A program made the position numbers and the translations under genes. The notes under the pieces are model-generated. The model saw nothing but the letters and a program-made list of their open reading frames with translations. It ran no database searches and was not told where the DNA came from. Positions 22,027 through 38,401 of a DNA stretch of 64,000 bases are shown in pieces; the stretch's first letter is position 1, and the number at the start of each line of letters is the position of its first letter. Source of the DNA: an uncultured Alphaproteobacteria bacterium (lineage in GTDB: Bacteria > Pseudomonadota > Alphaproteobacteria > HIMB59 > GCA-002718135); assembly GCA_902522865.1 (NCBI GenBank), contig CABYXC010000001.1, positions 121,693 to 185,692 on the forward strand, in the 5' to 3' direction.

Positions 22027-22659
22027 TTAGATCGCAGTTTTAAAATAAATATACTTATTAAATTCCTCTTTTAAGTCGATGCTAACTCTTGCATGTACTT
22101 TACCTTGTTTTCCATGAAATGATTGTTTTTCTTTAACTGGAAACACCCCTTCATGCCAAATGTTTGGATGAATATACAAACCTTTTGATCCATCACAATA
22201 AAATGCTTTGAAATGTTCTGGTTCGATGTCGTCTGTTGGTAAAGCTAAAGGACAAATAAATGGTTTATTTTCTGCAGGAAAAAAAAGCTGACCTCCATCA
22301 GGATGATAATTTGCATGCCATAGAAATATTTTTGTTGGATCTGAATATTTATCTTTTTGCAATTCTTGATCGGGGTTATTGGCATAACCCAGTATATATT
22401 TTCCATCTACTTCATAATCGCTCTTATGTTGGACAGCATTATTTTGTCCATAAAGCACATCACCTTGCCACCAGGTATCAAAAGAACCTTCGGTAGTTCC
22501 ACCTTCATTACCAGTTCCCTCTTCTATGTCGCGCCATCCTTGTTTTGGCCAAGTAACAATTTCAATATCACTATTTTCAAAACTATCGATTAAATATCCG
22601 TATCCTTTAAGATTTTCATTTGTTGCTTTAACTAATGGTATTTCAATTTCTTTTGTCAT
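22027..22659 (-). CDS. ureidoglycolate-lyase-like / cupin-fold protein, function unknown
   Basis: 210 aa. Block order LKGYGYLI ... NYHPDGGQLFFP ... KAFYCDGSKGLYIHPNIWHEG parallels AllA-type ureidoglycolate lyase as I remember it. Confidence 0.5.
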   Translation of the reverse strand: MTKEIEIPLVKATNENLKGYGYLIDSFENSDIEIVTWPKQGWRDIEEGTGNEGGTTEGSFDTWWQGDVLYGQNNAVQHKSDYEVDGKYILGYANNPDQELQKDKYSDPTKIFLWHANYHPDGGQLFFPAENKPFICPLALPTDDIEPEHFKAFYCDGSKGLYIHPNIWHEGVFPVKEKQSFHGKQGKVHARVSIDLKEEFNKYIYFKTAI

Positions 22660-22666
22660 TATTTTG

Positions 22667-23764
22667 TTAGTTTAATGTTAATCCCAATTCAGTAACGACT
22701 TCTTTTACAGCTTTTATTGTATCCATCATGTCTTGTTCATCTAAATTACCAATACACCCAATTCTAAAAGTTTCTGCCACTGTTAGTTTTCCTGGATAAA
22801 TTAAAAAATCTTTTTCACTAAGAGCATTATAAAATTTCTCAAAGTCAAATTTAGGATCATTAGGTTGTTTAAACGTAATAATAATTGGTGCTTGTAAATT
22901 ATCAGGAAGTAATTGCTCAAATCCCAACTCTTTCATTCCATTACAAATAATTTCACAATTTTTTTTATATCTTTTACCTCTTCCTTTTACACCGCCTTGT
23001 TCTTTATGTTCTTCAATAGCTTGGTTGAATGCAGCTAATACGTGTGTTGGAGGTGTAAATCGCCATTGTTTATTTTTTTCCATTGCTTGCCATTGATCAT
23101 ACAAGTCTAGACTTAGTGAGTGACTATTGCCTTTTGCATTTTGAATAACTTCATTTTTAACAAGAATGAAACCAACACCTGGCACACCTTCTAAGCATTT
23201 GTTTGATGAAGCGGCTACAGCATCAAAAGTAATTGTTTTAGAACTTAAGGGTAATGCACCAAAGGCACTCATTGCATCGATGAATAACGATAAATTTTTC
23301 CCCTCAACCAATTTTGCAATGTCTTCAATAGGATTTAAAATACCCGATGTTGTTTCACAATATACAGCAAAGACGTGTGTTAAGTTGTTGCTATCAATTA
23401 AGTCTTCAATTTTATTGATGTCATGTACTTCATGTTCAGCAACTTCATATTCAATAAAATCTCTCCCTAAATATGTGCACATTTTTTTCATTCTTTGTCC
23501 GTAAGCACCATTGATCAGAATCAGAATTTTAGAATCTTTTTGAGTAAGAGAGCTTACCATCGACTCTACGGCAAAAGTTCCACTTCCCTGCATTGGAACA
23601 CATTGATATTTATCTTCACCGTCTATTAATTTAACAAGGGAATCTCTAATTGATGCATTGAGATCAATAAATTTTGTATCTCTCGAACCCCAATCATGAA
23701 GCATAGCCTCTTTTGTTGACATCGATGTCGTGAGAGGACCAGGGGTTAATAATTTTTTATCCAT
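22667..23764 (-). CDS. phnW: 2-aminoethylphosphonate:pyruvate aminotransferase
   Basis: 365 aa class-V aminotransferase. LLTPGPLTTS N-terminus, SSNKCLEGVPG PLP-lysine block. Phosphonate gene context. Confidence 0.8.
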   Translation of the reverse strand: MDKKLLTPGPLTTSMSTKEAMLHDWGSRDTKFIDLNASIRDSLVKLIDGEDKYQCVPMQGSGTFAVESMVSSLTQKDSKILILINGAYGQRMKKMCTYLGRDFIEYEVAEHEVHDINKIEDLIDSNNLTHVFAVYCETTSGILNPIEDIAKLVEGKNLSLFIDAMSAFGALPLSSKTITFDAVAASSNKCLEGVPGVGFILVKNEVIQNAKGNSHSLSLDLYDQWQAMEKNKQWRFTPPTHVLAAFNQAIEEHKEQGGVKGRGKRYKKNCEIICNGMKELGFEQLLPDNLQAPIIITFKQPNDPKFDFEKFYNALSEKDFLIYPGKLTVAETFRIGCIGNLDEQDMMDTIKAVKEVVTELGLTLN

Positions 23765-23852
23765 TAAATATTTACTTAATAAATATTATTATAAATTTGA
23801 TCAATCTTATTAAAGTTGGAATTGAATTTATTTTCTAATAAGTTAATTATAA

Positions 23853-24428
23853 ATGAAAATGGAAGAAAATATTGTAGACTATCTCTTACATCTTTTGAAA
23901 ACAAAAGGTGCTGATATTCAATATGGTAATGAGGATGTGACCCAGCTTGAGCACGCACTCCAATGTGCTGAACTTGCTGAAAAACATAAATTACCAGGAC
24001 CAACAATTGCTGCAGCATTACTGCATGATGTTGGCCACCTTATCTATGAGGACGGCGATCCCATTCATGAAGGGAAAGATGGTCATCATGAAAATTTAGG
24101 TGCTGATTTTTTAAAAAAATATTTTGGTGAGGATGTTATTCTACCAATTAGAGCACATGTTGACTCAAAAAGATATTTATCAAGTGTTGAAGAAGGTTAT
24201 TATGATAGTCTATCAGAAGCATCGAAACTTTCGTTAAAAGTTCAAGGTGGTCCTTTCACAAAAGAAGAAGCAGATGCGTTTATAAGCAAACCTTTTATGG
24301 ATGAAGCAGTAGAGCTTAGAAGATTTGATGATTTAGCAAAAATTCTAGATAAAAAAACTCCCGATGTTGAACATTTCCGCCCCTATTTAGAAGAAGCAAG
24401 ACAGTCTTTTTTAGCTAAACAAGCGTAA
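23853..24428 (+). CDS. HD-domain protein of the PhnZ/TmpB phosphonate-oxygenase type
   Basis: 191 aa. QLEHALQCAELA and AALLHDVGHL blocks match my memory of PhnZ (QLEHSLQCA, AALLHDLGH). Further His/Asp ligands follow (HHEN, HVDSKRY). Confidence 0.65.
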   Translation: MKMEENIVDYLLHLLKTKGADIQYGNEDVTQLEHALQCAELAEKHKLPGPTIAAALLHDVGHLIYEDGDPIHEGKDGHHENLGADFLKKYFGEDVILPIRAHVDSKRYLSSVEEGYYDSLSEASKLSLKVQGGPFTKEEADAFISKPFMDEAVELRRFDDLAKILDKKTPDVEHFRPYLEEARQSFLAKQA

Positions 24429-24953: not shown

Positions 24954-26002
24954 AAAGAGACCGTTAAATTAAAAATATTTTCTAGAATAAATAAAACAAT
25001 TAAAGAAATTAAAGCTGTAATTATAGGTAGCGTCATCCAACCCAAAGAAATTCTACCTGCAATTGACCATTGAACCTCTTTTCCTCCTTTTAAAAGACCA
25101 ATTCCAATTATGCCGCCGACAACAGCTTGGGAACTTGATACTGGTACCAAAGGTATAGAGGGAAGATTTATAGATTGTAAAAAAGCACTTATACCCTGGG
25201 ATGCAAATAAAAATAAAACAATAGAATGCGATATAACAACAATAAATGCTGCCACTGGTGTCATTTTTAAGAGATCATTACCCACGGTAAACATAACTCT
25301 TTTCGAGTAAGTAAAAACACCAACAGCTATTGCTAAACCACCCAGCAGAAATAATTGTTCTTTTGAGGAAAAGACAAATAAATTTCCAATAGTAACATCA
25401 GTAAACGGTGATATAGGTACGAAGACACCCATTACATTGGCAATATTGTTTGCACCTAAACTATAAGCACCAAAAGCACCCGCTAAAAGTAAAGCTGTTC
25501 TTGTATAGGCATCAAGTCTGAGAATATGTAACTTTCTATTGAGTATAACTCTTTTTGTAAAAGTAAATAAACCCATTGCAATAACTCCTGCAATAATAGG
25601 ACAGAGTATCCATGTTCCTAAAATAGTAATTAAAACTTGAAGATTAGTTGAAGATCCCGTGTATAAATTCCAACCAACAATTGCTCCAACAATCGCTTGC
25701 GTTGTTGAAACAGGCAAGCCAACTTTAGTCATTAAATAAACAGATATTCCTGCAGCAACACATGCTGCAAAAGCACCAGGCAATGCATTAATAGCACCTA
25801 ACTTTCCTAAGGTTTCTGTTGTACCTGCTCCGCTAATAATTGCACCTAGAATAACAAAGACACTACAAATTATTGCTGCACTTGTGAAACTAACCATTCG
25901 TGTTCCAACTGCAGTTCCAAAAACATTTGCTGCATCATTGGCACCAAGTGACCAACCTAAAAAAAGACCACCAAATAAAAAAATTAGAATTGTAATTTCC
26001 AT
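24950..26002 (-). CDS. pit: PiT-family inorganic phosphate transporter
   Basis: 350 aa polytopic protein with GANDAANVFGT and a second GANNIANV signature. Confidence 0.85.
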   Translation of the reverse strand: MEITILIFLFGGLFLGWSLGANDAANVFGTAVGTRMVSFTSAAIICSVFVILGAIISGAGTTETLGKLGAINALPGAFAACVAAGISVYLMTKVGLPVSTTQAIVGAIVGWNLYTGSSTNLQVLITILGTWILCPIIAGVIAMGLFTFTKRVILNRKLHILRLDAYTRTALLLAGAFGAYSLGANNIANVMGVFVPISPFTDVTIGNLFVFSSKEQLFLLGGLAIAVGVFTYSKRVMFTVGNDLLKMTPVAAFIVVISHSIVLFLFASQGISAFLQSINLPSIPLVPVSSSQAVVGGIIGIGLLKGGKEVQWSIAGRISLGWMTLPIITALISLIVLFILENIFNLTVSF

Positions 26003-26008
26003 TGAAAA

Positions 26009-26671
26009 TTAAACGGAACGTTTAATAGCGAAAATTTGAACCTCGTCAGCTATGTCTTCTGCTTGATCACAAATACGATCAATCTTTTCTACAAAATATC
26101 GAAGATGCATTTTTTGATCTAGAGGTAATTCAGAATCAAAAATTCTTCTTGCAAGTGAACTAAATTTTATATCAGATTCTTTTTCATAAAAAGTTACTTT
26201 ATGAGCATTATCTCTAACAGATTTAATATCTCTAAAAAATGATCGGACAGTCAAACAAAGTGACTCAACACAATTTACAACAGTCTCTGTTAACTCAATA
26301 AGATCTTCATGAAATTCTTTTGGAAAATTAGGTTTTTGAATAGAGAAGTGATAGCAATTTCCTTGGTACATTCCAATTAATTCGTCGATGTGTTCTAGAA
26401 GTCGTAACACATCACTTCTTGCATCTGGGATTAGTGTTTCTTCATAAAGAGTATGCTCAACATCTTTTGTAATTTTGTCGGCCTTACTTTCCATTTCTTT
26501 AACTTTTTCAACCATTTCCTCAAATTTACCATTGGCGGAATGATTGAGATAAGTTGGAACTATCGATTTAAATACTAAGCCCACTTCAGAGACAATATCA
26601 ACAAACTCATCAATTTCTCTTTCAAGCTTTTTGGTATCACCAAATAATGATGCACTTTTTAATCCAAACAT
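26009..26671 (-). CDS. DUF47/PhoU-like phosphate-transport accessory protein
   Basis: 220 aa helical protein directly upstream of pit, the usual pairing. Confidence 0.75.
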   Translation of the reverse strand: MFGLKSASLFGDTKKLEREIDEFVDIVSEVGLVFKSIVPTYLNHSANGKFEEMVEKVKEMESKADKITKDVEHTLYEETLIPDARSDVLRLLEHIDELIGMYQGNCYHFSIQKPNFPKEFHEDLIELTETVVNCVESLCLTVRSFFRDIKSVRDNAHKVTFYEKESDIKFSSLARRIFDSELPLDQKMHLRYFVEKIDRICDQAEDIADEVQIFAIKRSV

Positions 26672-26710
26672 GGCGTGCTTATAGAACTTTTCAAAAAAAA
26701 AGAAAGAAAT

Positions 26711-26728
26711 GTTAAATTTTTGTTACAA
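26711..26728 (-). promoter_or_regulatory. candidate Pho-box-like site TTGTAAC-AAAA-ATTTAAC
   Basis: 7-4-7 direct repeat about 40 nt upstream of the DUF47-pit operon start, read on the minus strand. Confidence 0.3.
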
Positions 26729-26794
26729 TTTGATTAATATCTTTATCTTTAAGTAAAGTGTAATATTCGCAATATATAGAATTTAGGAGAAGAT

Positions 26795-27022
26795 ATGACA
26801 GATTTATCAATTAATAGAATTAAGTGGTTTAGCACCGCGTTAATTTTATCAGGAATATTATTAACCAATTTAAATGCGTATCCAATTAACATAATTATTC
26901 ACGGTACAGGTGCTGTTGGTTGGTCAATTGTTGGTTATATGACAAAAGATAGAGCTCTGCTTACAAACTTTGGTTTACAGCTCCCACTATTTATTTTTGG
27001 ATATATTTATTTGCTAGCATGA
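26795..27022 (+). CDS. small membrane protein, unknown function
   Basis: 75 aa with 2-3 hydrophobic helices. AGGAGA RBS. ATGA overlap with arsC suggests co-translation. Confidence 0.45.
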   Translation: MTDLSINRIKWFSTALILSGILLTNLNAYPINIIIHGTGAVGWSIVGYMTKDRALLTNFGLQLPLFIFGYIYLLA

Positions 27023-27438
27023 AAAATAAAAATATTCTATTTATGTGTGTTGCTAATTCATCAAGAAGTCAAATGGCTGAAGGAATTGCAAAAAAATTAT
27101 ATCCTAATTGCATTATTAAAAGTGCAGGATCAGTACCCAAAGAAGTCAATCCTAATGCAATTTTGGTTATGAGTGAGATCGATATTGATATATCAAAACA
27201 TTATTCAAAAGATTTTGAAAGTTTAGACAATAAGTTCAGAGATGAATTAAATACCGTTTTTACACTTTGTAAAGAAGAGGTATGCCCAGTTTTAAATTCT
27301 AAAGCTCAGATACTTTCAATTCCATTTGATGATCCTGCATCAGATCGTTTTAGTTCAAACCAATTAGATAAGTTTAGAGAAGTAAGAGATTCAATTTTTG
27401 ATAAATTGAAAGAACTAAAAAATTTATTTGAGAATTAA
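27019..27438 (+). CDS. arsC: arsenate reductase, LMW-PTP (thioredoxin-coupled) type
   Basis: 139 aa. CVANSSRSQMAEG (CX5R-S) P-loop plus downstream Cys residues. Confidence 0.75.
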   Translation: MKNKNILFMCVANSSRSQMAEGIAKKLYPNCIIKSAGSVPKEVNPNAILVMSEIDIDISKHYSKDFESLDNKFRDELNTVFTLCKEEVCPVLNSKAQILSIPFDDPASDRFSSNQLDKFREVRDSIFDKLKELKNLFEN

Positions 27439-27586
27439 TGAAGTTAAAAATTAATTAAATTTATAAAAATTTAATATTCCATTAATCTATTTGTAAACAA
27501 TAAAATTTAAATGTTTCTTACCACTCACAGTATTATTTCCTCCTGCTAATTACCAATAATTGTGAGTGGGATTAATTTTTTATTTC
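27379..27586 (+). repeat. direct repeat copy 1 (arsC 3' end plus downstream spacer with hairpin 27521-27569)
   Basis: About 208 bp aligns by eye at roughly 85% identity with 32165-32371. Both copies contain the 9-bp inverted repeat CCACTCACA...TGTGAGTGG. Confidence 0.85.
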
Positions 27587-27649
27587 TCCTTTTTCGAGTA
27601 CTTTAACAATTGTTTAACATTATAAAATTAAGAATTTAAAGTAAATTTT

Positions 27650-28492
27650 ATGAAAATTAATAAACCAGCGCTTACCTTTTCTAACTCCGAAGTTAGTCCT
27701 GTTGGAAAGATTATTATTCAATTAACCGAATTGGGAACGGGTAAAATTAAGTTACGTAAGTTGTATGAGGATTATTTAAGAGAAAATTTACCTCCAGAGA
27801 ATTTTTGGCATGATGCAATTGAAAGATTAGATCTCCGTGTTCAGGCCCATTATCATTCTAAAAATAATATTCCTGAAAATGGTAGGCTTGTAGTAATCGC
27901 TAACCATGCATTTGGTATAGCTGACGGGCTTACAATATGCTCTTTAATTAGTAAAATCAGACAAGATTACAAAATTATTACGCATAAAGTTTTACAAGGA
28001 GCAGATCTTATTAAGGACAAAATTATTCCTCTTGATTTTTCTAAAAACAAAAATGCTTTAATAAATAATATCGCTGCACGTAAAGAAAGTGAAGAACACT
28101 TAAGAAATAATGGGGTACTTATTATTTTTCCATCAGGATCAGTTTCAACAAAACCAAAATTAAAAAAAGGAATCAAAGCAATAGATGGTGATTGGAAACA
28201 ATTTACTTCTAAAATAATAATGAAAAATCAATCACCTGTTCTCCCCATTTTTTTTGAAGGACAAAATAGCGAACTTTTTCATGTTGCTGATAAAATTGGG
28301 CAAGTTTTTCGATATTCTTTAATGATATATGAACTTAAAAGAAGAATGGGAAAAAAAATTGATGTTCATATTGGACAAAGAATACCTTTTGAAACCATAA
28401 AAGAAATTGGCAATCTTATTGAGATTACAAAATTTTTAAGAGATAGCACTTATAGTTTAGATCCTAGTAATAAAAACTCAATATTAAATTAA
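27650..28492 (+). CDS. PlsC-related lysolipid acyltransferase (hemolysin-annotated family)
   Basis: 280 aa. VIANHAFGIADG block (NHxxGxxDG variant of the HX4D acyltransferase motif) and a later FPSGSVS block. Confidence 0.55.
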   Translation: MKINKPALTFSNSEVSPVGKIIIQLTELGTGKIKLRKLYEDYLRENLPPENFWHDAIERLDLRVQAHYHSKNNIPENGRLVVIANHAFGIADGLTICSLISKIRQDYKIITHKVLQGADLIKDKIIPLDFSKNKNALINNIAARKESEEHLRNNGVLIIFPSGSVSTKPKLKKGIKAIDGDWKQFTSKIIMKNQSPVLPIFFEGQNSELFHVADKIGQVFRYSLMIYELKRRMGKKIDVHIGQRIPFETIKEIGNLIEITKFLRDSTYSLDPSNKNSILN

Positions 28493-28599
28493 TACGTCTG
28501 TAAAAAAACAATTTTCATTTCAATTTTTACCCCTTTTTTTTATCATGCCTTTAACAATTTTTTAATACTTCATATTTAATAATGATGAAGGAGATTTTT

Positions 28600-30012
28600 A
28601 TGAAAAATAATTTAATAATTACTTTTCTTATCTGTACTATTGTTTCTCTAACCAATGTTGTTTTAGCACATTCTTATGTGGTTTCTAATTCAAAGGATAG
28701 CGGTGATGGATCTATTAGAGCAGCTATAGAAAATGCCAATAAGTCGGCTGGTGCAAATGTAATTTACATAAAGAGTGGAAATAATATTAAAATTTTATCA
28801 TCTTTAAGTTATACTAGTACAGCACCATTATTTATTTATGGTCAGGGCCAAACAATTCACGCTATGGATGATTTTACAATTCTTGAATCAACAAATGGCG
28901 GTGATATGTCTATACACTCAATAAATTTCAGAGGTCCTGGAGGTTTTAATATTGAAAACCGTGCTGATTTAGATGGTGTAGGTGGTAAAGGAATTTTGTT
29001 AAATGTTAGAGACAATCAATATGGAATGGTTAAATTAGTTCTTAACGATGTAAAGGTTTCTGATGTTGCTAACCACGGGATTCATGTATCCGATTGCGAT
29101 GTTGGTGCAACGTGTGGTGCAGGCGGGGGAGGAGCAGGCGGCGGTTCGCCAGCTTCTATTTCTGTTTCCTTAAATAATGTAGTTGTTGACAATGTTGGTC
29201 AAGGAATGTTTGATGCCGACGGTCTGCGTGTAGATGAAAGAGACGATGGAGATCTAATTGCTTCTATTTTAAACTCTTCGTTTACGAGAGTCGGTGCAGA
29301 TGGAGTAGAGCTTGATGAAGGTCAAGCTGGCTCAGTTATTGCACAGATTGAAAATACATCATTTAATAACAATGGTTATTATTGCCACCCAGATATTTTG
29401 GAAGCCTATCTCCCTGAAGAAGACGAAGGTGAATTTGAAGATGGTCAGATGACTGAATCAGCTGTACCACCTGCTATTACTGGATCTCCAGATGATGGCT
29501 GTTTTGAAAGAGAAGTAAGTCTTTATGACAGTGGTTTTGTTGAAGAATATGAATTTGGTATTGATGTTGACGATGGATTTGATGTGGATGAAGCAGGTCC
29601 TGGAGATATCTACGCTGAAGTAACTCGATCAACAATTATTGGTAACTGGGATGAAGGTCTTGACTTTGATGAGGAACAAGAAGGATCAATTAACATGACA
29701 ATCATTGATACAATTGCACTAAGCAATACAGATGATGGATATAAACATTCTGAAGAAGGTCCAGGAAATGTAAGTGCTTTTGTTATCAATTCATCATCTG
29801 AAGACAATGGTGGAAAAGGTTTTGTTTTCGAAGAAGAAGAAGCAGGCAATGTTATGATCATGGCACAAGATGTTACCACATCAAATAATGATGATAGTGA
29901 TGGAACTGGAATGGAACTTGTCCAAGAAGATTCAGGTTATGGTATTGTCAGATCTATTTCTTCAAGTATCACAGACGGATTTGATATAGAAGGTGTTGAG
30001 TCGATTAATTAA
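28600..30012 (+). CDS. secreted, highly acidic parallel-beta-helix-like repeat protein, unknown function
   Basis: Track ORF starts at 28582, but AAGGAG lies 6 nt before the ATG at 28600. Signal peptide MKNNLIITFLICTIVSLTNVVLA. About 7 coils with a D-G-x-x-x-D-E-x-x-x-G pattern. Poly-Gly tract GAGGGGAGGGS. Confidence 0.5.
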   Translation: MKNNLIITFLICTIVSLTNVVLAHSYVVSNSKDSGDGSIRAAIENANKSAGANVIYIKSGNNIKILSSLSYTSTAPLFIYGQGQTIHAMDDFTILESTNGGDMSIHSINFRGPGGFNIENRADLDGVGGKGILLNVRDNQYGMVKLVLNDVKVSDVANHGIHVSDCDVGATCGAGGGGAGGGSPASISVSLNNVVVDNVGQGMFDADGLRVDERDDGDLIASILNSSFTRVGADGVELDEGQAGSVIAQIENTSFNNNGYYCHPDILEAYLPEEDEGEFEDGQMTESAVPPAITGSPDDGCFEREVSLYDSGFVEEYEFGIDVDDGFDVDEAGPGDIYAEVTRSTIIGNWDEGLDFDEEQEGSINMTIIDTIALSNTDDGYKHSEEGPGNVSAFVINSSSEDNGGKGFVFEEEEAGNVMIMAQDVTTSNNDDSDGTGMELVQEDSGYGIVRSISSSITDGFDIEGVESIN

Positions 30013-30023
30013 AAGCTAAATTC

Positions 30024-30056
30024 TTGAAGCTGGATATATTCCAGCTTCAAATTTTT
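30024..30056 (+). terminator. rho-independent terminator
   Basis: 11-bp perfect stem TTGAAGCTGGA/TCCAGCTTCAA with a 5-nt loop, followed by ATTTTT. Confidence 0.75.
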
Positions 30057-30095
30057 AAATTAGACTTAGCTCTAGATTTGTGTTTTGCTGAGTCC
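30046..30095 (-). repeat. remnant copy of the ppk 3' end (last ~15 codons plus stop)
   Basis: 46/50 nt identical to 32369-32418. On the minus strand it translates as ..SAKHKSRAKSNLKI*, versus ..SAKLKSRAKSNLKI* in the real ppk. Confidence 0.85.
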
Positions 30096-30225
30096 TTAAA
30101 TTTTATATTCTTGCGCTGTCAGTGAATCAATTATTAAGCGCTTTATCATTTTTCTTTTTTATTTTAGGTTTATTTTTAATCTTTTTATTCAAACGGTAAT
30201 ATTAATTTTTTATGAATTTTCTTTG

Positions 30226-30242
30226 GAATTTCCTAGAAATTC
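30226..30242. promoter_or_regulatory. perfect 7-3-7 palindrome GAATTTC-CTA-GAAATTC
   Basis: Read directly, about 100 nt upstream of the island plcP copy. A third GAATTTTC copy lies 10 nt further upstream. Confidence 0.25.
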
Positions 30243-30299
30243 ACAAATAATAGGATTGAGCCTAATAACAGAAAAACCGTTACATATTAGTTAATGTAA

Positions 30300-30317
30300 T
30301 TGAAATAAAATTTTAAC
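30300..30317 (+). promoter_or_regulatory. candidate Pho-box-like site TTGAAAT-AAAA-TTTTAAC
   Basis: 7-4-7 repeat 28 nt upstream of the ATG at 30345. It shares the 12-mer ATTGAAATAAAA with the site at 13633-13661. Confidence 0.3.
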
Positions 30318-30344
30318 AAATTTTTATTATTTTTTTATATTAAA

Positions 30345-31151
30345 ATGAAAGATCAGCAATCAGTTTCATATTATAGAACTATATGGATATCTGATCTTCA
30401 TCTTGGAACAGAAAATAGCAAGAGTGAAATGCTTCTTGAATTTTTGAGATCAACAGATTCAAAATATTTATTTTTAGTTGGCGATATTATTGATGCATGG
30501 AGAATGAAAAAAAAAATTTATTGGCATCAAACTCATAATGACATTATCCAGAAGATTTTGCGTAAAGCAAGAAAAGGTACAAAAGTTATATTTATCCCAG
30601 GTAATCATGACGAACTTGTAAAAAGTTACACAAGTTTTTCACTAGGGAATATATCAATAAAAAATAAGTTTACACACAAACTAGCTGATGGAAGAAATGC
30701 CCTTGTTTTACATGGTGATGAATTTGATGCAGTTATAATAAATGCTAAATGGCTGGCAAGTATTGGGTCATCCCTATACGAATTTATATTAAAGTTGAAT
30801 AACTATCTAAATTTTGTCAGAAGAAAACTAGGTCTGTCTTATTGGTCATTATCTCAATTTCTCAAACATCAAACAAAAAGAGCCACGAATTTTATTTCTA
30901 ACTTTGAGTTTGCCGTATCTGATAGCGCTAAAAGAGCAAATGCCGATGTTGTTGTGTGCGGCCATATTCATAAGCCCGTTATAAAAAAATTAAACGGAGT
31001 GTTATATTGCAATGATGGTGATTGGGTTGAGAGTTGTTCTGCGCTAGTGGAAAATAAAGAGGGACAATTATCCCTTATTGACTGGTCAATTGAAAGAGAA
31101 AAAATTTTTCAACATAAACATAACAAACTAGCAGAAAGTGTATCAGTGTGA
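30345..31151 (+). CDS. plcP: LpxH-like metallophosphoesterase, PlcP-type phospholipase C candidate (island copy)
   Basis: 268 aa. WISDLHLG, GDIIDAW, GNHD, HGDEFD, GHIH motifs. Roughly 70% identical by eye to the 37589-38401 product. 4-nt overlap with the glycosyltransferase gene. Confidence 0.7.
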   Translation: MKDQQSVSYYRTIWISDLHLGTENSKSEMLLEFLRSTDSKYLFLVGDIIDAWRMKKKIYWHQTHNDIIQKILRKARKGTKVIFIPGNHDELVKSYTSFSLGNISIKNKFTHKLADGRNALVLHGDEFDAVIINAKWLASIGSSLYEFILKLNNYLNFVRRKLGLSYWSLSQFLKHQTKRATNFISNFEFAVSDSAKRANADVVVCGHIHKPVIKKLNGVLYCNDGDWVESCSALVENKEGQLSLIDWSIEREKIFQHKHNKLAESVSV

Positions 31152-32143
31152 AAAAATTAGCGATCATTACCGATGCTTGGCTTCCTCAAGTTAATGGTGT
31201 TGTAAATACATACCTACATATTAATCCATTTTTAAAACAAAAGTATCAAATTGAAGTACTCCACCCAATGATGTTTACTAATTTTAGTTATCCTTGGTAT
31301 AAGGAAATAAAAATAGCAATTAATACAAAAAAAATAACAGAAAAATTTTTTGGTGATTATGATCCTGATGTTATACATATTGCCACTGAAGGGCCAGTTG
31401 GAATTGCGGGGAAAAAATTCTGTGAGAAAAATAGGTTGAGATATACAACTTCTTTTCATACGAGATTTCCAGAATACATAGAGCAGAGAATAATGATACC
31501 AAAAATAATTGGGTACTCTTTTTTAAAAAATTTTCATAAAAATGCATGTAATGTATTGGTCCCAACAGTATCTATGCGAAACGAATTAACTAAATATCAA
31601 TTTCAAAATCTTAAAATTTGGTCAAGGGGAGTTAATACTGAATTATTTAATCCTTTAAAAAGAAGAAAAGGACTGAAAAAGTATATTGTTTACATTGGTA
31701 GAGTTTCATTAGAAAAAAACATCGAAGCGTTTTTAGAAATAAGAACTAAGATGGATAAAATTGTTGTTGGAGATGGTCCAGAAAAACAACGACTACAAAA
31801 TAAATATCCATATGTATCTTTCGTTGGGATGAAAAAAGGTCAAGACTTAGCAAATTATTATGCAAATGCTGAAGCGTTGGTATTCCCATCCAAAACAGAT
31901 ACATTTGGAAATGTAATTTTAGAGTCTTTAGCCTCTGGAACACCAGTGGCTGCTTACCCAGTAACAGGTCCTAAAGATATTTTAAAAAACTCATTAATTG
32001 ACAGTCTTGATAACGATATTGAAAACTCACTTAAAAAAGCCTTAAAGATTGATAGAAATGATTGTAGAAAATTTGCAATGCAATTTACTTGGGATAGATG
32101 TGCAAATCAATTTCTATCTAATATTGTAAATGCAAAAAATTAA
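31148..32143 (+). CDS. agt: GT4-family glycosyltransferase, Agt-type glycolipid synthase candidate (island copy)
   Basis: 331 aa. C-terminal FPSKTDTFGNVILESLASGTPV (E-x7-E-type GT4 block). Paralog of 36598-37599. Confidence 0.7.
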   Translation: MKKLAIITDAWLPQVNGVVNTYLHINPFLKQKYQIEVLHPMMFTNFSYPWYKEIKIAINTKKITEKFFGDYDPDVIHIATEGPVGIAGKKFCEKNRLRYTTSFHTRFPEYIEQRIMIPKIIGYSFLKNFHKNACNVLVPTVSMRNELTKYQFQNLKIWSRGVNTELFNPLKRRKGLKKYIVYIGRVSLEKNIEAFLEIRTKMDKIVVGDGPEKQRLQNKYPYVSFVGMKKGQDLANYYANAEALVFPSKTDTFGNVILESLASGTPVAAYPVTGPKDILKNSLIDSLDNDIENSLKKALKIDRNDCRKFAMQFTWDRCANQFLSNIVNAKN

Positions 32144-32164
32144 TTTTAAAATTATAGTTACTAA

Positions 32165-32371
32165 GAAGTAAAAGATTCAATTTTTAACAAATTGAAAGAA
32201 CTAAAAAATTTATTTGAGATTAATGAAATTTAAAAATTAGTTTAATTTATAAAAATTTAATATTCTATTAACACGGCTGTAAAAAATAAAATTTAAATAC
32301 TTTTTACCACTCACAGTATATTTCTTCCTGCTTATGTCCAATTAATGTGAGTGGGATTAAATTCTATTTTC
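32165..32371 (+). repeat. direct repeat copy 2 (arsC 3' remnant 32165-32232 plus spacer with hairpin 32307-32354)
   Basis: Aligns with 27379-27586. The remnant would encode EVKDSIFNKLKELKNLFE.., versus arsC EVRDSIFDKLKELKNLFEN*. Confidence 0.85.
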
Positions 32372-34469
32372 AAATTTTTAAATTAGACTTAGCTCTAGAT
32401 TTAAGTTTTGCTGAACCCCTCCCAGACAAGCTTGGATTTTTGATAAAAAAATTGTGAGAGGAAAACTTTTTCTCTTTGCTTGATATTTCTTTTTTCTGAT
32501 AATTGCCATTACTTAACATTTGCCAAGAATTTGTATTATCTGTCATACTGGCAATTAAGATCTGATTTAATATTTGTTCATGTACAGTTTCATTTTCAAT
32601 AGGAATAAATGTTTCAACACGCCTATCTAGATTTCTTTGCATTAAATCGGCAGAAGAAATAAACAAGATATTTTTTCTATGAGGGAATTTATGACCGTTA
32701 TAAAAACAATATATTCTCGTATGTTCTAAAAAACGACCAATTATACTTTTAACAACTATATTTTCCGATAGATTTTCTTTACCAGGTATTAGAGAGCAAA
32801 TTCCTCTTATCAACAATTCAATTTTTACATTTTTTTGAGATGCTTTATAAAATTCATCAATAATTTGTTTATCAACAAGAGAATTACACTTACATACTAT
32901 TCCAGATGGTTTATTTTTTCCAGCATTTGTAATTTCATTTCTAATTAGTTCATTTAATTTGTTTCTTGCAGTTATTGGAGAATATACTATTTTTTTTATT
33001 GTTGTTGGTTCTGAATAACTAGTTAAATAATTAAACATTTTTGCAGCATCATTTGTTAATGTTTTGTCACAGGTGAAGTAAGATAAATCCATATAAACTT
33101 TTGCATTTCTCGGGTGATAATTACCTGTTCCATAATGTGCGTAATTTACAACAGAATTCATTTGCTTCCTTGTTACAAGTGTAATTTTTGCATGAGTTTT
33201 CATATCAATATTGCCAAAAACAACTTGCGCTCCAGCTAATTCTAATTCTTTTGCCCATTTTAAGTTACGCTCTTCATCAAAACGTGCTTGCAGCTCTATA
33301 ATGACAGTTACTAATTTCCCTTTTTGTGCTGCTCTAACTAAACTTGCTTCTATCGGCGAGTCATCAGTTGTTCGGTATAAAGTATGTTTTATTGATAAGA
33401 CTTTTGGATCATCTGCGGCTTGATCAATAAACTGAGTCACTACTTCAAAAGATTCAAATGGGTGATGAATAACAATATCTTTATTCGCTATTGCTTTAAA
33501 ATAATCATTTTTAAAATCTTTAATTCTTTCAGGAAATCGTACCTTAAATTTTGGAAAAAATAATTTTTTAAAATCTTTTAAAAAAATTGACTCTATACTA
33601 GAAAGATTAATGGGTATTGGAAGTTTATATGTATTTACATCCTTATAGTTAAGTTTTTTATTTATGAATTTAATTAAGTGACTAGATATGTTTTCATCAA
33701 AATCAATTCTTATTACCTCTTGTCTTCTTCTTTCAAAAATAGCTTTTTGAAATACTAAAAATAAATCTTCTCCTTCACCCCCTAATTCTAATTCACTATT
33801 CCTAATTGGTCTAAAAACACCTTTATCCAAAACTCTATCACACTGGAAAATTTCTTTTAAAGAAATAAGCAAGGCTGTCTCCATAGAGACAAAACGTATT
33901 TTTTTACCAGGTAATTTAATAAATTTTTCTAATCCCTCTGGCACTCTCAGTATTCCATAAAAAGTTTTTTTATTATTTATTAACCGACATACTAATGTTG
34001 TTTCTTTATTTGGTATAAAAGGAAATGGGTGAGATGGATCAATAATAATTGGCGTTAAAACCCCCCAATTATTTTCTTCTAAATAATTTTTTATAAATGT
34101 TTTATCTTTTGTTTTCAGTGTTTTTTCTACATCTATATGGATCTTATTTTCTGAAAGCTCTTTTAGTAAATCTATCCATATTGATTTTATATCTGAAATC
34201 ATCTTTGATGTTTCTTTATCTATCAGCTTGAGTTGCTGTTGTGGTGTTAATCCATCAAAACTTTTATTTCGTGAATATTTTTGAACATTTAATCCTGCCA
34301 CTCTAACCATAAAAAATTCATCAAGATTAGAGAATGCTATTGATAGAAACCTAACTCTTTCTAATAATGGCGTTTTATTATCAAGTGTCTGACTTAAGAC
34401 TCTTTCATTAAATTTAAGCCAAGATAATTCTCTATTAATATAGTTAAAAGAATTATTATTTTTAATCAT
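32370..34469 (-). CDS. ppk: polyphosphate kinase 1
   Basis: 699 aa. N-terminal NRELSWLKFNERVL block and overall PPK1 length and architecture. Confidence 0.9.
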   Translation of the reverse strand: MIKNNNSFNYINRELSWLKFNERVLSQTLDNKTPLLERVRFLSIAFSNLDEFFMVRVAGLNVQKYSRNKSFDGLTPQQQLKLIDKETSKMISDIKSIWIDLLKELSENKIHIDVEKTLKTKDKTFIKNYLEENNWGVLTPIIIDPSHPFPFIPNKETTLVCRLINNKKTFYGILRVPEGLEKFIKLPGKKIRFVSMETALLISLKEIFQCDRVLDKGVFRPIRNSELELGGEGEDLFLVFQKAIFERRRQEVIRIDFDENISSHLIKFINKKLNYKDVNTYKLPIPINLSSIESIFLKDFKKLFFPKFKVRFPERIKDFKNDYFKAIANKDIVIHHPFESFEVVTQFIDQAADDPKVLSIKHTLYRTTDDSPIEASLVRAAQKGKLVTVIIELQARFDEERNLKWAKELELAGAQVVFGNIDMKTHAKITLVTRKQMNSVVNYAHYGTGNYHPRNAKVYMDLSYFTCDKTLTNDAAKMFNYLTSYSEPTTIKKIVYSPITARNKLNELIRNEITNAGKNKPSGIVCKCNSLVDKQIIDEFYKASQKNVKIELLIRGICSLIPGKENLSENIVVKSIIGRFLEHTRIYCFYNGHKFPHRKNILFISSADLMQRNLDRRVETFIPIENETVHEQILNQILIASMTDNTNSWQMLSNGNYQKKEISSKEKKFSSHNFFIKNPSLSGRGSAKLKSRAKSNLKI

Positions 34470-36597: not shown

Positions 36598-37599
36598 CTA
36601 AACGTTTACCATGTATTCTAAAAATTCTTTCACGCATTTATCCCAAGTTAAATTAAGTGTAAAATTTCTACAATCAACCCTTTTTACCTTGAGTGCTTTC
36701 TTAATTGACTGTAATAAGTCATTATCTAAAGTATTAATTTTCTCATCTGTTAATACATCTATAGGCCCAGTTACTGGATATGCAGCAACTGGTGTTCCAC
36801 TAGCCAATGCTTCAAGTATTACATTTCCTAATGTGTCTGTTTTAGAAGGAAATACAAACACATCTGCGTTTGCATAATATTTCGCTAATTCTTCTCCAGT
36901 TTTTACACCGACAAAATTTACTTCAGGATACTTATTAATATATTTTTCTAATTCAGGACCATCTCCCACAACTATTTTATTATAATTTCCTTTAAGTTTT
37001 AAAAATTCTTCAATATTTTTTTCAATAGCAACTCTTCCAACATAAGTCAGCTGTGTATCCTTGCTGTTTATATCTCTTTTATTCGGATTAAATAATTCTG
37101 TATCAACACCTCTGTTCCAAACTACTAAATTTTTAAAATTATATTTTTTTAACTCATTTAGCATTGAAACTGATGGAACAAGAACTCTTTCAGAATCACT
37201 ATGTAGTTTTCTTAATATGGAATAAGTAAATCTCTTTGGGATAAAAGCTCTTTGTTTAATATAATCAGGAAAACGAGTGTGAAAAGAAGAAGTATATTGA
37301 AGTTTATTTTTAATACAGTACTTACGACCAGCAAAACCTACTGGACCTTCAGTCATTATATGAACAATATCTGGATTAAATTCTTTAAAAAATTTTTCAG
37401 TAACTTTCTTAGTGTTGTAAGAAATCTTTATTTCTTTGTACTTAGGATAACTAAAATTATTAAACATCTGAGGATGTAATATTTTTATTTCAAAACCTTT
37501 TTTTTCTAGAATAGGTATAACGCTTTGAAATGTCGTAACTACGCCATTTACCTGAGGAACCCACGCATCACTAATTAATGCGATTTTTTTAGGCTGCAT
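36598..37599 (-). CDS. agt: GT4-family glycosyltransferase, Agt-type (second copy)
   Basis: 333 aa. FPSKTDTLGNVILEALASGTPV. 11-nt overlap with the upstream plcP. Confidence 0.7.
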   Translation of the reverse strand: MQPKKIALISDAWVPQVNGVVTTFQSVIPILEKKGFEIKILHPQMFNNFSYPKYKEIKISYNTKKVTEKFFKEFNPDIVHIMTEGPVGFAGRKYCIKNKLQYTSSFHTRFPDYIKQRAFIPKRFTYSILRKLHSDSERVLVPSVSMLNELKKYNFKNLVVWNRGVDTELFNPNKRDINSKDTQLTYVGRVAIEKNIEEFLKLKGNYNKIVVGDGPELEKYINKYPEVNFVGVKTGEELAKYYANADVFVFPSKTDTLGNVILEALASGTPVAAYPVTGPIDVLTDEKINTLDNDLLQSIKKALKVKRVDCRNFTLNLTWDKCVKEFLEYMVNV

Positions 37600-38401
37600 C
37601 CTCTTTTATTTTTCGTCTTTCTTCAAAAGAAATTAATTTTAAATTTTCTCTTTCTTCGGGCCAATTAAGAATTGATAAATTTCCAATTTCATCTTCAACA
37701 AGTGCTGTGCAACTTTCAATCCAGTCACCATCATTACAATAGAGAACACCATTTAATTCTTTTATTTCTGGTCTATGTATATGCCCACATACAACAACAT
37801 CGGCATTTTCTCTTCTAGCTCTATCAGATACAGCAAACTCAAAATTACTAATAAAGTTGGTTGCATGCTTTGTTTTCTTTTTTAAATATTGAGACAGTGA
37901 CCAGTAAGACAAGCCCATCTTTCGTCGAATAAAATTAAATACATTATTTAACTTTAGTAAATATTCATAAAGTGCTGATCCAACTTTGGCTAACCATCTC
38001 GCATTAATGATCACAGCATCAAATTCGTCTCCGTGTGTAATCAGTACTTTCCTTCCATCAGCTAATTGATGAGTATCTTCATTTTTGATAGAAATTTCTC
38101 CAAAAGAAAAATTTGTAAAATCTTTTAATACCTCATCATGATTTCCTGGAATAAGTACTACCCTAGTTCCGTTTTTCGCTTTCTTTAAAACTTTTTGAAC
38201 AATGTCATTATGTTCTTGTGGCCAATACATTTTCTTACGCATGCGCCATCCATCAACAATGTCCCCTACTAAAAATAAATATTCCGAATCTGTTTCTTCT
38301 AAGAATTCTAAAAGCATCTTGCTTTTACAACCACTAGTTCCTAGATGGGTATCCGAAATCCAAATTGTGCGGTAAAATTTTTTATTACTTTTAAATTTCA
38401 T
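37589..38401 (-). CDS. plcP: LpxH-like metallophosphoesterase, PlcP-type phospholipase C candidate (second copy)
   Basis: 270 aa. WISDTHLG, GDIVDGW, GNHD, HGDEFD, GHIH. Confidence 0.7.
   Translation of the reverse strand: MKFKSNKKFYRTIWISDTHLGTSGCKSKMLLEFLEETDSEYLFLVGDIVDGWRMRKKMYWPQEHNDIVQKVLKKAKNGTRVVLIPGNHDEVLKDFTNFSFGEISIKNEDTHQLADGRKVLITHGDEFDAVIINARWLAKVGSALYEYLLKLNNVFNFIRRKMGLSYWSLSQYLKKKTKHATNFISNFEFAVSDRARRENADVVVCGHIHRPEIKELNGVLYCNDGDWIESCTALVEDEIGNLSILNWPEERENLKLISFEERRKIKEDAA

Follow-up and report, generated by a model that had tools for sequence, protein, structure and literature searches.

How did a 4.8-kb block of phosphate-starvation genes come to lie between two conserved genes, an arsC-like gene and ppk? 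The block is found in a 64-kb window (the whole stretch of DNA that was analysed), where it spans 27585-32163. The order of the genes, which on reanalysis is the same as in an earlier sequence-only reading of this DNA, is the arsC-like gene, a spacer, an acyltransferase, a 476-aa protein, a hairpin terminator, a ppk remnant, plcP-agt, an arsC remnant with spacer, and ppk. The left flank, the arsC-like gene (27019..27438, + strand; Pfam LMWPc), belongs to the LMW phosphatase/arsenate-reductase family and is present in all 50 related loci; against the NCBIfam arsC_pI258 family it scores 93 bits, under the 174-bit cutoff. The right flank, ppk (32370..34469, - strand; Pfam PP_kinase domains), encodes a polyphosphate kinase that is 96-100% identical in 51 related loci. 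The host, a marine alphaproteobacterium abundant in the ocean, had been taken for a member of Pelagibacterales, but it is instead in the HIMB59 order (AEGEAN-169), outside Pelagibacterales sensu stricto. The locus lies in the published flexible phosphate island of this order (fGIp, versions F-H; Molina-Pardines et al. 2023, PMC10734472), for which homologous recombination was proposed and in which IS and tRNA are absent.

The arsC-like/ppk junction was surveyed in 50 related single-cell genomes, each representing a different species cluster. Five states were found, and these states recur in independent metagenome contigs. The junction is empty in 18 of the 50 genomes, holds only the acyltransferase in 2, holds the acyltransferase and plcP-agt in 25, resembles the window in 3, and has an added ugp transporter in 2. 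Empty junctions are plain, with arsC-like and ppk converging on a spacer of 150-152 nt (arsC-like > spacer < ppk). This is exactly the ancestral junction that had been proposed from the window, and the arsC remnant and spacer beside ppk are its fossil. Since the block is polymorphic among relatives, with empty alleles, they do not share one fixed arrangement, and its reading as an insertion is borne out at the population level. The joint between agt and the arsC remnant has the same sequence in 31/31 occupied loci and therefore arose once; the joint between the spacer and the acyltransferase is also the same in every occupied locus. Chimeras can come from single-cell amplification, but finding the same joints in over 30 single-cell genomes assembled independently, and in metagenome contigs of different projects, effectively refutes an assembly or amplification artefact, to which we give next to no weight. 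The block is likely a genuine insertion in the convergent spacer, old and polymorphic, composite and built in several steps.

The insertion is bounded by direct repeats. In a self-BLASTN of the window, 27378-27594 recurs at 32164-32379 with 84.9% identity over 218 columns (E 1.6e-61), in line with the ~85% first estimated by eye, and a separate repeat search recovered the same repeat pairs. The repeat opens with ~61 nt that belong to the 3' end of the arsC-like gene (27019-27438). Homology proper extends to the ppk stop codon (near 27584/32369); the final ~10 nt of the BLASTN repeat are T-rich and colinear with the ugpB-upstream region of another allele. At 217 nt, the target duplication exceeds what is usual for an illegitimate insertion. 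The left copy, DR1 (27378..27584), contains the last ~61 nt of arsC and the spacer. It is a cargo-linked haplotype (type 1), unchanged in 27/31 occupied loci, and 24-33 diagnostic sites, the first at 27336/27390, set it apart from empty-site alleles. The right copy, DR2 (32164..32369), consists of the arsC 3' remnant, with a 1-nt deletion, and what comparison with the empties identifies as the native spacer (type 2) adjoining ppk; it is pure type 2 in 25/31 occupied loci. Empty-site alleles are 92-94% identical to DR2 and 85-88% identical to DR1. The ~15% divergence had been read as a sign of an old or other-lineage origin, and the repeats are indeed old, distinct haplotypes. Neither is chimeric, DR1 being all cargo-linked type and DR2 all native type, so either the founding crossover fell at an edge, in the 50-nt ppk piece, or one of the joints was illegitimate. 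The spacer also contains a 10-11-bp stem with a ~30-nt loop followed by a U-rich tract (27521..27569; fold -15.4/-17.4 kcal/mol, z -2.6/-3.4). DR2 (32307-32354) has kept this stem-loop, as have the spacer copies in L054, L055 and L069; it probably acts as a terminator in both directions, serving the convergent genes arsC-like and ppk.

Recombination through the repeats occurs, at least in the excision direction: of the 18 empty alleles, six join DR1 exactly to DR2, and two different crossover points are represented among them. In five of the six, the left part is identical to DR1 (0 differences) and the right part is 0-1 differences away from the DR2 subtype seen in L002/L019/L031/L034. The sixth switches later, to a different DR2 subtype that it matches with 0 differences. 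The right halves differ from other empties at 6-7 and 2 sites. As far as their sequences tell, these alleles indicate that cargo was lost through the repeats; exact chimeras could in principle be integration targets instead of excision products. A second case of the pattern is seen in L054, where a 5.2-kb GDPD+ABC cassette lies between 39-nt target duplications of 94.9% identity. Diversity is not lower in the cargo than in the flanks, so there is no recent-sweep signal for horizontal spread of the cargo itself.

The sequence-only reading had described one insertion of one cargo. Instead, no fewer than three modules arrived in separate events, every one leaving a scar of its own, and internal deletions came later. 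Module 1 (27650..28492, + strand; Pfam Acyltransf_2) is a predicted aminolipid (OlsF-N/GlsA-like) O-acyltransferase (NCBIfam: OlsF 4e-41, GlsA 3e-25). Only 27650-28479 matches, with 90.6% DNA identity, the core gene at the NmrA/ccmH locus of related lineages (L070, L071); past 28479 the sequence turns into spacer. This third, truncated spacer copy (28470..28538; 77% to 32249-32311, E 1e-5 in self-BLASTN) gives the acyltransferase its last 4 codons and stop, and is full length, with its hairpin, in L054, L055 and L069. Three-way comparison of the island gene, the native gene and the spacer defines the joint as a 9-nt microhomology, ATAAAAATT, and a microhomology joint for module 1 is proven. 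A promoter-like repeat, P* (repeat family D11), is located upstream of the acyltransferase (27601..27635, + strand) and again upstream of the module 2 gene (28549..28583, + strand; 77% to 27601-27635, with an exact motif match); it also precedes both genes in L054, L055 and L069. Its TTTAACA-N4-TTTAACA sequence is a candidate Pho box, with a weak motif count of 7 matches compared to 2.1 expected.

Module 2 (28582..30012, + strand) encodes a secreted, acidic protein of 476 aa that is modelled as a right-handed beta-helix (AF2 pLDDT 90.8). It had no match in Pfam, NCBIfam or PDB sequences; 622 homologues were found, and fold comparison of the model gave only generic matches to beta-helix folds. 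The gene has a GC content of 0.38-0.42 compared to a background of ~0.29. A perfect hairpin terminator, T (30024..30050; -21/-23.7 kcal/mol, z -4.5/-5.0), called on both strands by a terminator scan, lies between this gene and K' (30047..30095, - strand), a fossil of the last 16 codons and stop of ppk. In the self-BLASTN, 30035-30091 matches 32358-32414 (89.5% over 57 nt, E 2.7e-14). As first noted by eye, 46/50 positions are identical between 30046-30095 and the live ppk end at 32369-32418, and the remnant still encodes ..SAKHKSRAKSNLKI*. In L040 and L046, ~75 nt from the 3' end of the beta-helix gene survive as a fossil behind the acyltransferase, with terminator T and an intact ppk next in line, and the beta-helix>T<ppk order was therefore once a native joint. 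L054 has the same beta-helix/T module with a ~140-nt ppk fossil, beside unrelated genes. After K' comes X (30096..30298), an orphan non-coding stretch that the window-like and ugp-extended states alone possess and that has no similarity to any sequence compared.

Module 3 (30299..32143, + strand; Pfam Metallophos, GT4/GT1) consists of plcP1 (30345-31151) and agt1 (31148-32143) with 46 nt of promoter. The plcP-agt operon of marine heterotrophs (Sebastian et al. 2016, PMC4796936; Wei et al. 2021, PMC8231724) likewise has a metallophosphoesterase gene overlapping a GT4 gene downstream, in a Pho-regulon neighbourhood. By this analogy, with function taken from PMC4796936, plcP1-agt1 may be a phospholipase C and a glycolipid glycosyltransferase for phosphorus-free lipid remodelling. 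The likeness to the characterised HTCC7211 and Phaeobacter proteins is one of gene arrangement, and activity is predicted. Unlike that operon, the pair here has two copies per genome, of which one is core and the other lies in the flexible insertion. The core pair, agt2-plcP2 (36598..38401, - strand), is outside the insertion, is present in all related loci, was described as core (PMC10734472), and serves as the reference for the origin of module 3. It is inverted relative to 30378-32116, with 69% DNA identity, and the two pairs are 70% and 61% identical in protein. Compared with core SET<>plcP>agt>MIP loci, plcP1-agt1 shows ~70% DNA identity that is confined to 30299-32144; its nearest protein relatives are 69-77% identical. 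The 20 nt after agt1 (32144..32163) form the right-hand illegitimate joint to the arsC remnant. They resemble the agt2-MIP intergenic region and MIP start, although weakly and over 10 nt (TTATAGTTAC and TTATAGTGAC). The joint itself has a weak 5-6-nt microhomology in an AT-rich genome and no homologous counterpart on the agt side.

These data also bear on whether anything was inserted. The full array could be ancestral, with the shorter states, including the empty one, being deletions, or plcP1-agt1 could be an in-situ duplication of the core pair, which lies only 4.5 kb away. The six chimeric empties, the acyltransferase plus plcP-agt state, and L040 are clearly deletion derivatives. However, the arsC remnant and native spacer by ppk, together with the ppk fossil, require an earlier uninterrupted junction. 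Twelve empties have private variants absent from every DR2, as well as a distinct 27336 allele outside the repeat. Besides its inversion and divergence from the core pair, plcP1-agt1 is equidistant (69-77%) from all sampled core copies. We consider it improbable that no insertion took place.

Duplications of this topology can come from Campbell integration, from tandem duplication with captured DNA or from homology-facilitated illegitimate recombination (HFIR), and a Campbell-type or an HFIR origin, either one, fits. In a pure Campbell event, a circular DNA carrying the arsC end, spacer, ppk end and cargo would enter by one RecA crossover within the homology, and the repeats would be its products. 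Cargo between direct target repeats is exactly the topology expected, as in lambda, suicide plasmids and amplifiable units, where exact repeat-by-repeat recombinants without cargo are also seen. Recombination between the repeats, for which there is evidence in the excision direction, would set such a circle free, and L054 provides a second cassette with a target duplication. In contrast to those systems, there is no replicon, att core or integrase here, and the repeats are 15% diverged. The sequence-only reading had favoured a Campbell-type single crossover or unequal recombination, which agrees with the topology and with the repeat recombination, but a crossover in mid-repeat predicts chimeric repeats and these are pure. 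With modules 1-2 already present, the crossover would be needed in the 50-nt ppk piece and not in the 207-nt spacer segment, and two illegitimate joints would still be needed to make the circle. Furthermore, no circular or tandem form was seen, and the cargo was demonstrably assembled stepwise. A pure Campbell origin is thus doubtful, if possible.

Alternatively, HFIR of a linear donor island fragment would combine homologous pairing in arsC with a microhomology joint at arsC -60. The donor order would be arsC-spacer type 1, acyltransferase, beta-helix, T, ppk fossil, X, plcP, agt, MIP and onward. Strand exchange would have ended where divergence rises to 15%, and the resident arsC end and spacer would be retained as DR2. 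An entirely donor-type DR1 and an entirely resident-type DR2 are what a one-sided anchor plus microhomology gives in the HFIR described by de Vries & Wackernagel (2002) and Prudhomme et al. (2002), as presented in PMC6382021. Joints of 3-10 bp are given there; the module 1 joint is 9 nt and microhomology is plausible at the agt joint. The divergence step at 27390 matches the repeat boundary at 27378, but this coincidence is also expected if the single-copy flank was homogenised by recombination. L054 shows that island versions exist with the beta-helix/T/ppk-fossil module next to unrelated genes, yet the needed donor, with the ppk-fossil/X joint, or X itself, was not found among the sequences compared. 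In the account of PMC6382021, HFIR was shown experimentally in competent bacteria and mostly deletes recipient DNA, whereas here DNA is duplicated, and neither natural competence nor another DNA-uptake route is known for these bacteria. We can entertain this origin only tentatively. The earlier claim of homology-driven gain is supported as to recombination through the repeats, at least in the excision direction. It does not hold in its pure form, since at least one founding joint is illegitimate at microhomology.

Could a dedicated recombinase have been involved? No tRNA and no Rfam family was found in the 64-kb window, and ORFs of at least 110 aa contained no integrase, transposase or recombinase domain, which upholds the original observation that integrase, transposase and tRNA are absent. 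A site-specific cassette system, integron-like or Xer/dif-module-like, could use the spacer and terminator hairpins as sites for a recombinase encoded elsewhere. As with integron cassettes and Xer-dependent dif modules, the cargo units here lack a recombinase, each is followed by a hairpin-bearing linker, and their order and placement vary between lineages; the acyltransferase was also captured with ORF precision. However, there is no intI or attI, and every module carries a promoter of its own. All linkers are homologous to a single local terminator sequence, of which they are copies; they are neither attC nor dif, and not diverse sequences of similar structure. The joints fall at differing spacer positions (27378, 27463 and ~27575-27594), one is plain microhomology, and window-wide self-comparison revealed no more copies. 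Such a system is very improbable.

We propose that the insertion was assembled as follows. First, the acyltransferase ORF would have been copied from the core locus and placed behind a Pho-box-like promoter, its 3' end being fused to a spacer copy at the 9-nt microhomology. Second, the secreted beta-helix gene, with its own promoter copy and hairpin terminator, would have been added; formerly directly beside ppk, this module would have retained the 49-nt ppk fossil. Third would have come the divergent plcP-agt pair, apparently excised from a distant lineage in which it formed part of a plcP>agt>MIP locus. Illegitimate joints would connect it to the ppk fossil on one side and to a duplicate arsC end and spacer on the other. 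Every addition would have duplicated part of the existing junction, and a dedicated recombinase would not be required. Once in place, the allele may pass from one lineage to another when the conserved flanks undergo ordinary homologous recombination. Internal deletions trim it (the commonest allele is without 28520-30290), and crossing over between the two 207-nt repeats would remove the cargo precisely. Among the genomes compared, none had plcP1-agt1 by itself between duplicated junctions, and none had an intact acylT>beta-helix>T<ppk array.

Neisseria minimal mobile elements (Saunders & Snyder 2002; Snyder et al. 2007), as portrayed in PMC3787668, are similar in that alternative cassettes occupy the space between a specific conserved gene pair, without mobility genes, and are exchanged by homologous recombination in the flanks. 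By comparison with that portrayal, the cassettes here are additive and nested, and they keep long target duplications that are able to delete the cargo again. Neisseria is also naturally competent according to the same source, unlike anything established for HIMB59-order cells.

The closest comparison is with fGIp itself (PMC10734472). The organisms are the same, locus L032 being AG-891-K05, the reference genome there, and so are the genes: pstSCAB-phoU, phoRB, ppk, sixA, ppx, GlpF/MIP, "Wzb", and "LpxH" with "RfaG", including the core LpxH/RfaG/methyltransferase trio. That study also concluded that content varies at a fixed position. It works at the gene-content level, without the arsC-like/ppk states, gene-end fossils, microhomology joint or repeat excision, and the term "direct repeat" has 0 occurrences in it. 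LpxH, RfaG and Wzb are taken there as envelope enzymes, whereas we read the LpxH/RfaG genes as plcP/agt of lipid remodelling. The variable gene content of the island was thus already published, and the junction scars are the new detail. For the cell, the insertion would add Pho-regulated capacity for phosphorus-free membrane lipids (aminolipid and glycolipid), together with a secreted protein, and this gain would come to cells that already hold one core plcP-agt pair.

Self-comparison of the window detected three pairs of direct repeats in the region between an arsC-like gene (27019-27438) and ppk (32370-34469, minus strand). The longest pair, 27378-27594 and 32164-32379, is 84.9% identical over 218 columns (E = 1.6e-61) and begins 61 nt upstream of the stop of the arsC-like gene. 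These repeats are 207-217 nt long and 85% identical, their longest shared identical run is 30 nt, and the arsC remnant has a 1-nt deletion. The second pair, 30035-30091 and 32358-32414 (89.5% over 57 nt, E = 2.7e-14), covers the last 16 codons of ppk. With the slightly different boundaries used in the sequence-only reading, 46 of 50 nt are identical and the reading SAKHKSRAKSNLKI* is retained. The self-alignment confirms the duplicated arsC and ppk ends described in that reading, which missed the third pair (28470-28534 and 32249-32311, 77% over 65 nt, E = 1e-5). The left junction copy (27378-27584) is referred to here as DR1 and the right copy, which adjoins ppk (32164-32369), as DR2.

Domain and NCBIfam searches agree with the gene content described from the sequence. 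The arsC-like gene belongs to the LMWPc/ArsC family, scores below the NCBIfam arsenate-reductase cutoff and is called Wzb in the literature on this island (PMC10734472). It is followed by an Acyltransf_2 protein, closest among named proteins to the O-acyltransferase half of OlsF and to the lyso-glycine-lipid acyltransferase GlsA, and by a 476-aa protein (28582-30012) with no family assigned. A perfect hairpin terminator lies directly after the gene for the 476-aa protein. Then come plcP-agt, encoding a metallophosphoesterase and a GT4 glycosyltransferase, and ppk. Scans of the 64-kb window for tRNAs and Rfam families were empty, and no integrase, transposase, recombinase or intI domain was found in any ORF of at least 110 aa across the 64 kb. 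At the array of inserted genes, the repeat search of the window found no terminal inverted repeats, and there was neither an identical core site at both ends nor a short target duplication of fixed length.

A query with the ppk protein returned at least 51 syntenic loci with ppk 96-100% identical, all from GORG single-cell genomes and each representing a different species cluster. One of them (L032) is AG-891-K05, the reference genome of genomospecies GCA002718135-1.A of the HIMB59 order, also known as AEGEAN-169 and formerly as SAR11 clade V (Molina-Pardines et al., PMC10734472). The presence of this genome among the syntenic loci places the locus in the HIMB59 order and not, as had been assumed, in the Pelagibacterales in the strict sense. 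The same study describes a flexible phosphate island (fGIp) at a fixed position with a matching gene set, in which an LpxH/RfaG/methyltransferase trio belongs to the core and a paralogous LpxH/RfaG pair to the flexible part. Homologous recombination was proposed for the island on the absence of IS elements and tRNAs, and direct repeats are not mentioned (PMC10734472). The window locus has the conserved position of the fGIp in HIMB59-order genomes, its borders without an IS element or tRNA, and its pst operon with Pho-regulon genes of varying content. It carries phoR, pstSCAB, phoU, phoB, ppk, ppx, sixA and PiT, with one junction in five states and further indels elsewhere in the island. The variable gene content of the island is thus already known; what is new is the mechanistic record kept at the arsC/ppk junction. 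The junction also resembles the minimal mobile element of Neisseria, defined in PMC3787668 as a region without mobility genes that varies among close relatives between specific conserved flanks. Upstream of the phosphate genes, window positions 10599-24428 encode an ABC transporter, a type I phosphodiesterase, an aldehyde dehydrogenase, an Fe-alcohol dehydrogenase, a metallophosphoesterase and an HD-domain protein; this part of the island may be for the use of organophosphates or phosphonates.

Alleles of the junction were surveyed in 50 loci with both flanks. Eighteen are empty, with a spacer of 150-152 nt between the arsC-like gene and ppk (for example L004, L006 and L036). Two loci from a divergent lineage (L040 and L046) have only the acyltransferase (1.17 kb), and 25 have the acyltransferase and plcP-agt without the beta-helix gene that encodes the 476-aa protein (3.16 kb; for example L014). 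The window arrangement is found in three loci (4.93 kb; L001-L003), and two more (9.25 kb; L005 and L051) add a ugpBAEC-like transporter between the spacer and the acyltransferase. Identical arrays occur in independent metagenome contigs and in further single-cell genomes, which rules out an assembly artefact. A lack of empty-site alleles would have counted against the insertion proposed from the sequence, but 18 loci are empty. The commonest allele, present in 25 genomes, derives from the window type by deletion, since the partial spacer copy in the window extends further and is colinear with the spacer.

Other indels were compared with this junction. A clean indel of 4.3 kb separates the window type from the ugp-extended type, and no flanking duplication was found for the ugpBAEC cassette. 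The PiT/PhoU_div pair (window 24954-26757) is another indel polymorphism, missing from L001-L003 and L043, and the overlap at its joint is only about 10 nt. Long target duplications are therefore not universal among the indels of the island. At the PTP|PiT junction, L004 (14738-15745), like L007, has a cassette with a secreted Polysacc_lyase-domain protein, and L046 (16011-18246) has one with two homocysteine S-methyltransferase genes. Apparent frameshifts in ppx, sixA and ppk in the single-cell assemblies (L011 8548-9449; L043 9483-9940; L046 10001-12080) could be sequencing errors or real pseudogenes.

The two repeat copies differ at 24-33 diagnostic sites, which define a type 1 (DR1) and a type 2 (DR2) haplotype. 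In all 31 occupied alleles, DR2 starts at the same nucleotide after agt and DR1 leads into the same acyltransferase upstream region; the joints of the array have one origin. Type 1 DR1 is invariant in 27 of the 31 occupied genomes and type 2 DR2 is pure in 25, and neither copy is chimeric. DR2 is 92-94% identical to the empty-site alleles, DR1 only 85-88%. Between occupied and type 2 empty genomes, the leftmost fixed differences are at 27336/27390, the left edge of the duplicated block, and none were found further left in the arsC-like gene or DUF6552. From these identities and the position of the fixed differences, DR2 is the native junction and DR1 travels with the cargo.

In six of the 18 empty alleles, type 1 sequence on the left gives way to type 2 on the right, and the reverse order was never seen. 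In five, the switch lies between 27457 and 27480; these five show 0 differences from DR1 to the left of it, and to the right they differ at 0-1 sites from the DR2 subtype of L002, L019, L031 and L034 and at 6-7 from the other empties. The sixth (L020) switches between 27540 and 27548, with 0 differences on the left from DR1 and on the right from another DR2 subtype. The six chimeric empties are the exact products expected of DR1 x DR2 recombination in two different occupied chromosomes, so the cargo was lost precisely at least twice, independently. Patch conversion could also place type 1 sequence to the left of type 2, but excision is favoured since the right halves match sampled DR2 subtypes exactly and not the other empties. 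The remaining 12 empties have variants of their own and, outside the repeat, a distinct allele; most probably they never held the cargo. Nucleotide diversity showed no dip specific to the cargo of the kind that would signal a sweep.

The acyltransferase was traced to a source in the core genome. In related lineages it belongs to the core genome, with an NmrA-family gene on one side and ccmH on the other (L070 2890-3729; L071 1387-2226), and the core and island genes are 87% identical in protein and 90.6% in DNA. Homology spans the start codon (27650) to 28479 and then switches to spacer at a shared ATAAAAATT, so the last four codons and the stop of the island gene derive from the spacer. The match between the island and core genes is confined to the stretch that begins at the start codon and ends 13 nt short of the stop. 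The joint to the spacer is illegitimate, at the 9-nt microhomology ATAAAAATT, and the event looks like ORF-precise capture of the acyltransferase into a promoter/terminator slot. The spacer copy that follows the acyltransferase is truncated at 28538 in the window. In L054, L055 and L069 it is complete with its hairpin and is followed by a short fossil of the ugpC 3' end.

The beta-helix gene has a copy of the acyltransferase's promoter-like element. In L040 and L046, only its last ~75 nt remain, followed by the terminator and intact ppk. In the metagenome contig L054, the gene and terminator are followed by a ppk fossil of ~140 nt and then by unrelated genes. The fossil is 49 nt in the window (30047-30095) and almost gone in L069, the lineage in which the module lies at another place without a ppk piece. 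The L040/L046 joint and the ppk fossils indicate that beta-helix gene, terminator and convergent ppk formerly made a native joint, and that the module has moved since, carrying pieces of ppk. An intact state with the acyltransferase, beta-helix gene and terminator facing ppk was not found among the matches listed. The acyltransferase and beta-helix modules of L054 lie after phoU-phoB and not between the arsC-like gene and ppk. Between the two modules is a 5.2-kb cassette with a GDPD and an ABC transporter, bracketed by a 39-nt duplication of the acyltransferase 3' end (2532-2570 and 7733-7770). The 476-aa protein is a predicted right-handed beta-helix (pLDDT 90.8) with generic fold matches only, and PDB sequence and fold searches gave no clue to its function beyond that fold. 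Its large, well conserved family comprises 622 homologues from marine Alpha- and Gammaproteobacteria that are 50-60% identical, and every one is annotated 'hypothetical' or 'right handed beta helix'. The protein has a signal-like N-terminus and many invariant Asp, Glu and Gly residues. Its gene, in a phosphate-stress context, has a GC content of 0.38-0.42, above its surroundings.

The third module, plcP1-agt1, is ~70% identical in DNA to the core SET<>plcP>agt>MIP loci, exactly over 30299-32144, and the 20 nt 3' of agt1 weakly resemble the agt2-MIP spacer and MIP start. The nearest protein relatives of plcP1-agt1 are 69-77% identical, with nothing in between. No closer plcP1 donor was found in a collection of 5.8 billion proteins, where identity falls from 99% directly to 77%, and the exact plcP1 protein is always located in the same array. 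The 203 nt upstream of the module (30096-30298) had no match by BLASTN against all the loci retrieved, tblastn of all island proteins, or comparison with the SET-plcP intergenic regions of three lineages. At the level of domains, a PlcP-type metallophosphoesterase precedes an Agt-type GT4 glycosyltransferase, as in the plcP-agt lipid-remodelling operon, and the operon architecture in PMC4796936 is alike. Relatives are annotated LpxH in their sources.

These observations bear on how the array was gained. The cargo lies between copies of a duplicated target and the empty site has a single junction copy, as expected of a Campbell-type product. Such a product should also have reciprocal donor/recipient chimeric repeats around the crossover, but DR1 and DR2 are pure types. 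Only chromosomal excision products, the exact DR1/DR2 recombinants, were seen among the recombination forms. The acyltransferase/spacer joint has the 3-10-bp microhomology characteristic of homology-facilitated illegitimate recombination (HFIR). At the agt/arsC-remnant joint there is only a weak match of 5-6 nt, and the agt side lacks a homologous counterpart. The cargo-linked type 1 haplotype is continuous from 27390 into the cargo, a pattern also expected from linkage alone. The founding events are thus constrained by the duplicated-target topology, the non-chimeric repeats and at least one illegitimate microhomology joint. A Campbell-type crossover fits if it was confined to the 50-nt ppk piece or took place at the extreme edge, as does its equivalent, in which the junction was duplicated in tandem and foreign DNA was captured at the new joint. 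HFIR also fits, with an anchor in the arsC-like gene ending where divergence jumps to 15% and the far end joining at arsC -60. Both the Campbell/tandem-duplication and the HFIR routes are compatible with the constraining facts. No donor, intermediate or circle was found in the loci and collections examined. The 39-nt target duplicate around the second cassette of L054 shows that the target-duplication pattern recurs.

A site-specific system acting at the junction is unlikely, because joints occur at several different points in the spacer, the linkers all copy a single local terminator, and there is no recombinase within 64 kb. General recombination would be sufficient for the array to spread through flank homology and to be lost through repeat homology. 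The sequence-only reading of a homology-associated, recombinase-free gain into the arsC-ppk spacer was right in outline, but several steps and illegitimate joints were involved.

Candidate Pho boxes were found within the array and beside it. TTTAACA-N4-TTTAACA and its variants, 7-nt direct repeats with an 11-nt period, occur upstream of the acyltransferase (27602-27619), the beta-helix gene (28550-28567) and plcP1 (30312-30329), and in the PiT/PhoU_div <> DUF6552 intergenic region (26710-26727). The motif count is only weakly above chance (7 versus 2.1 expected), and a sigma-70 promoter scan showed no enrichment (31 versus 32.8 in shuffles) and so lends no support of its own. In both copies of the spacer hairpin (27532-27558 and 32318-32344), the ~30-nt loop includes a CCUCC / CUUCC tract. 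On the plus strand this tract is anti-Shine-Dalgarno-like, and on the minus strand it reads AGGAGG; it is not followed by a conserved small ORF. All functions named here are putative assignments from family membership. On that basis, the cargo genes would fit one theme, that of replacing phospholipids during phosphate stress. PlcP and Agt use diacylglycerol derived from phospholipids to make glycolipids (PMC4796936; PMC8231724), and the acyltransferase resembles enzymes of ornithine- and glycine-lipid synthesis (NCBIfam).

Abundant, streamlined ocean bacteria acquire and shed adaptive genes, and to our knowledge they carry almost no transposons, integrases or plasmids. Published work on the island inferred homologous recombination since other hallmarks were absent (PMC10734472). 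The pattern at this locus is real and more than chance. Its legible scars are target duplications nested within each other, fossil ends of neighbouring genes, a joint at a microhomology, an ORF whose source in the core genome was traced, and exact repeat-by-repeat recombinants without cargo. Together, they turn the general inference into a stepwise history. A much broader reading, which we consider improbable, is that the promoter-like repeats, spacer/terminator copies and gene-end fossils jointly act as portable homology. Streamlined marine bacteria free of mobile genetic elements would then capture single ORFs precisely, from start codon to near the stop, bring them under the control of Pho, assemble them into stacks, move them among positions in the island and release them again by general recombination alone. 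This 'integron without an integrase' would perhaps be the general route by which the flexible islands of HIMB59, SAR11 and similar plankton are built. The junction itself is an unusually legible example of island building and erosion, not a new kind of system, and it makes the putative capacity for phosphorus-free lipids a gain-and-loss trait in one of the dominant surface-ocean clades.
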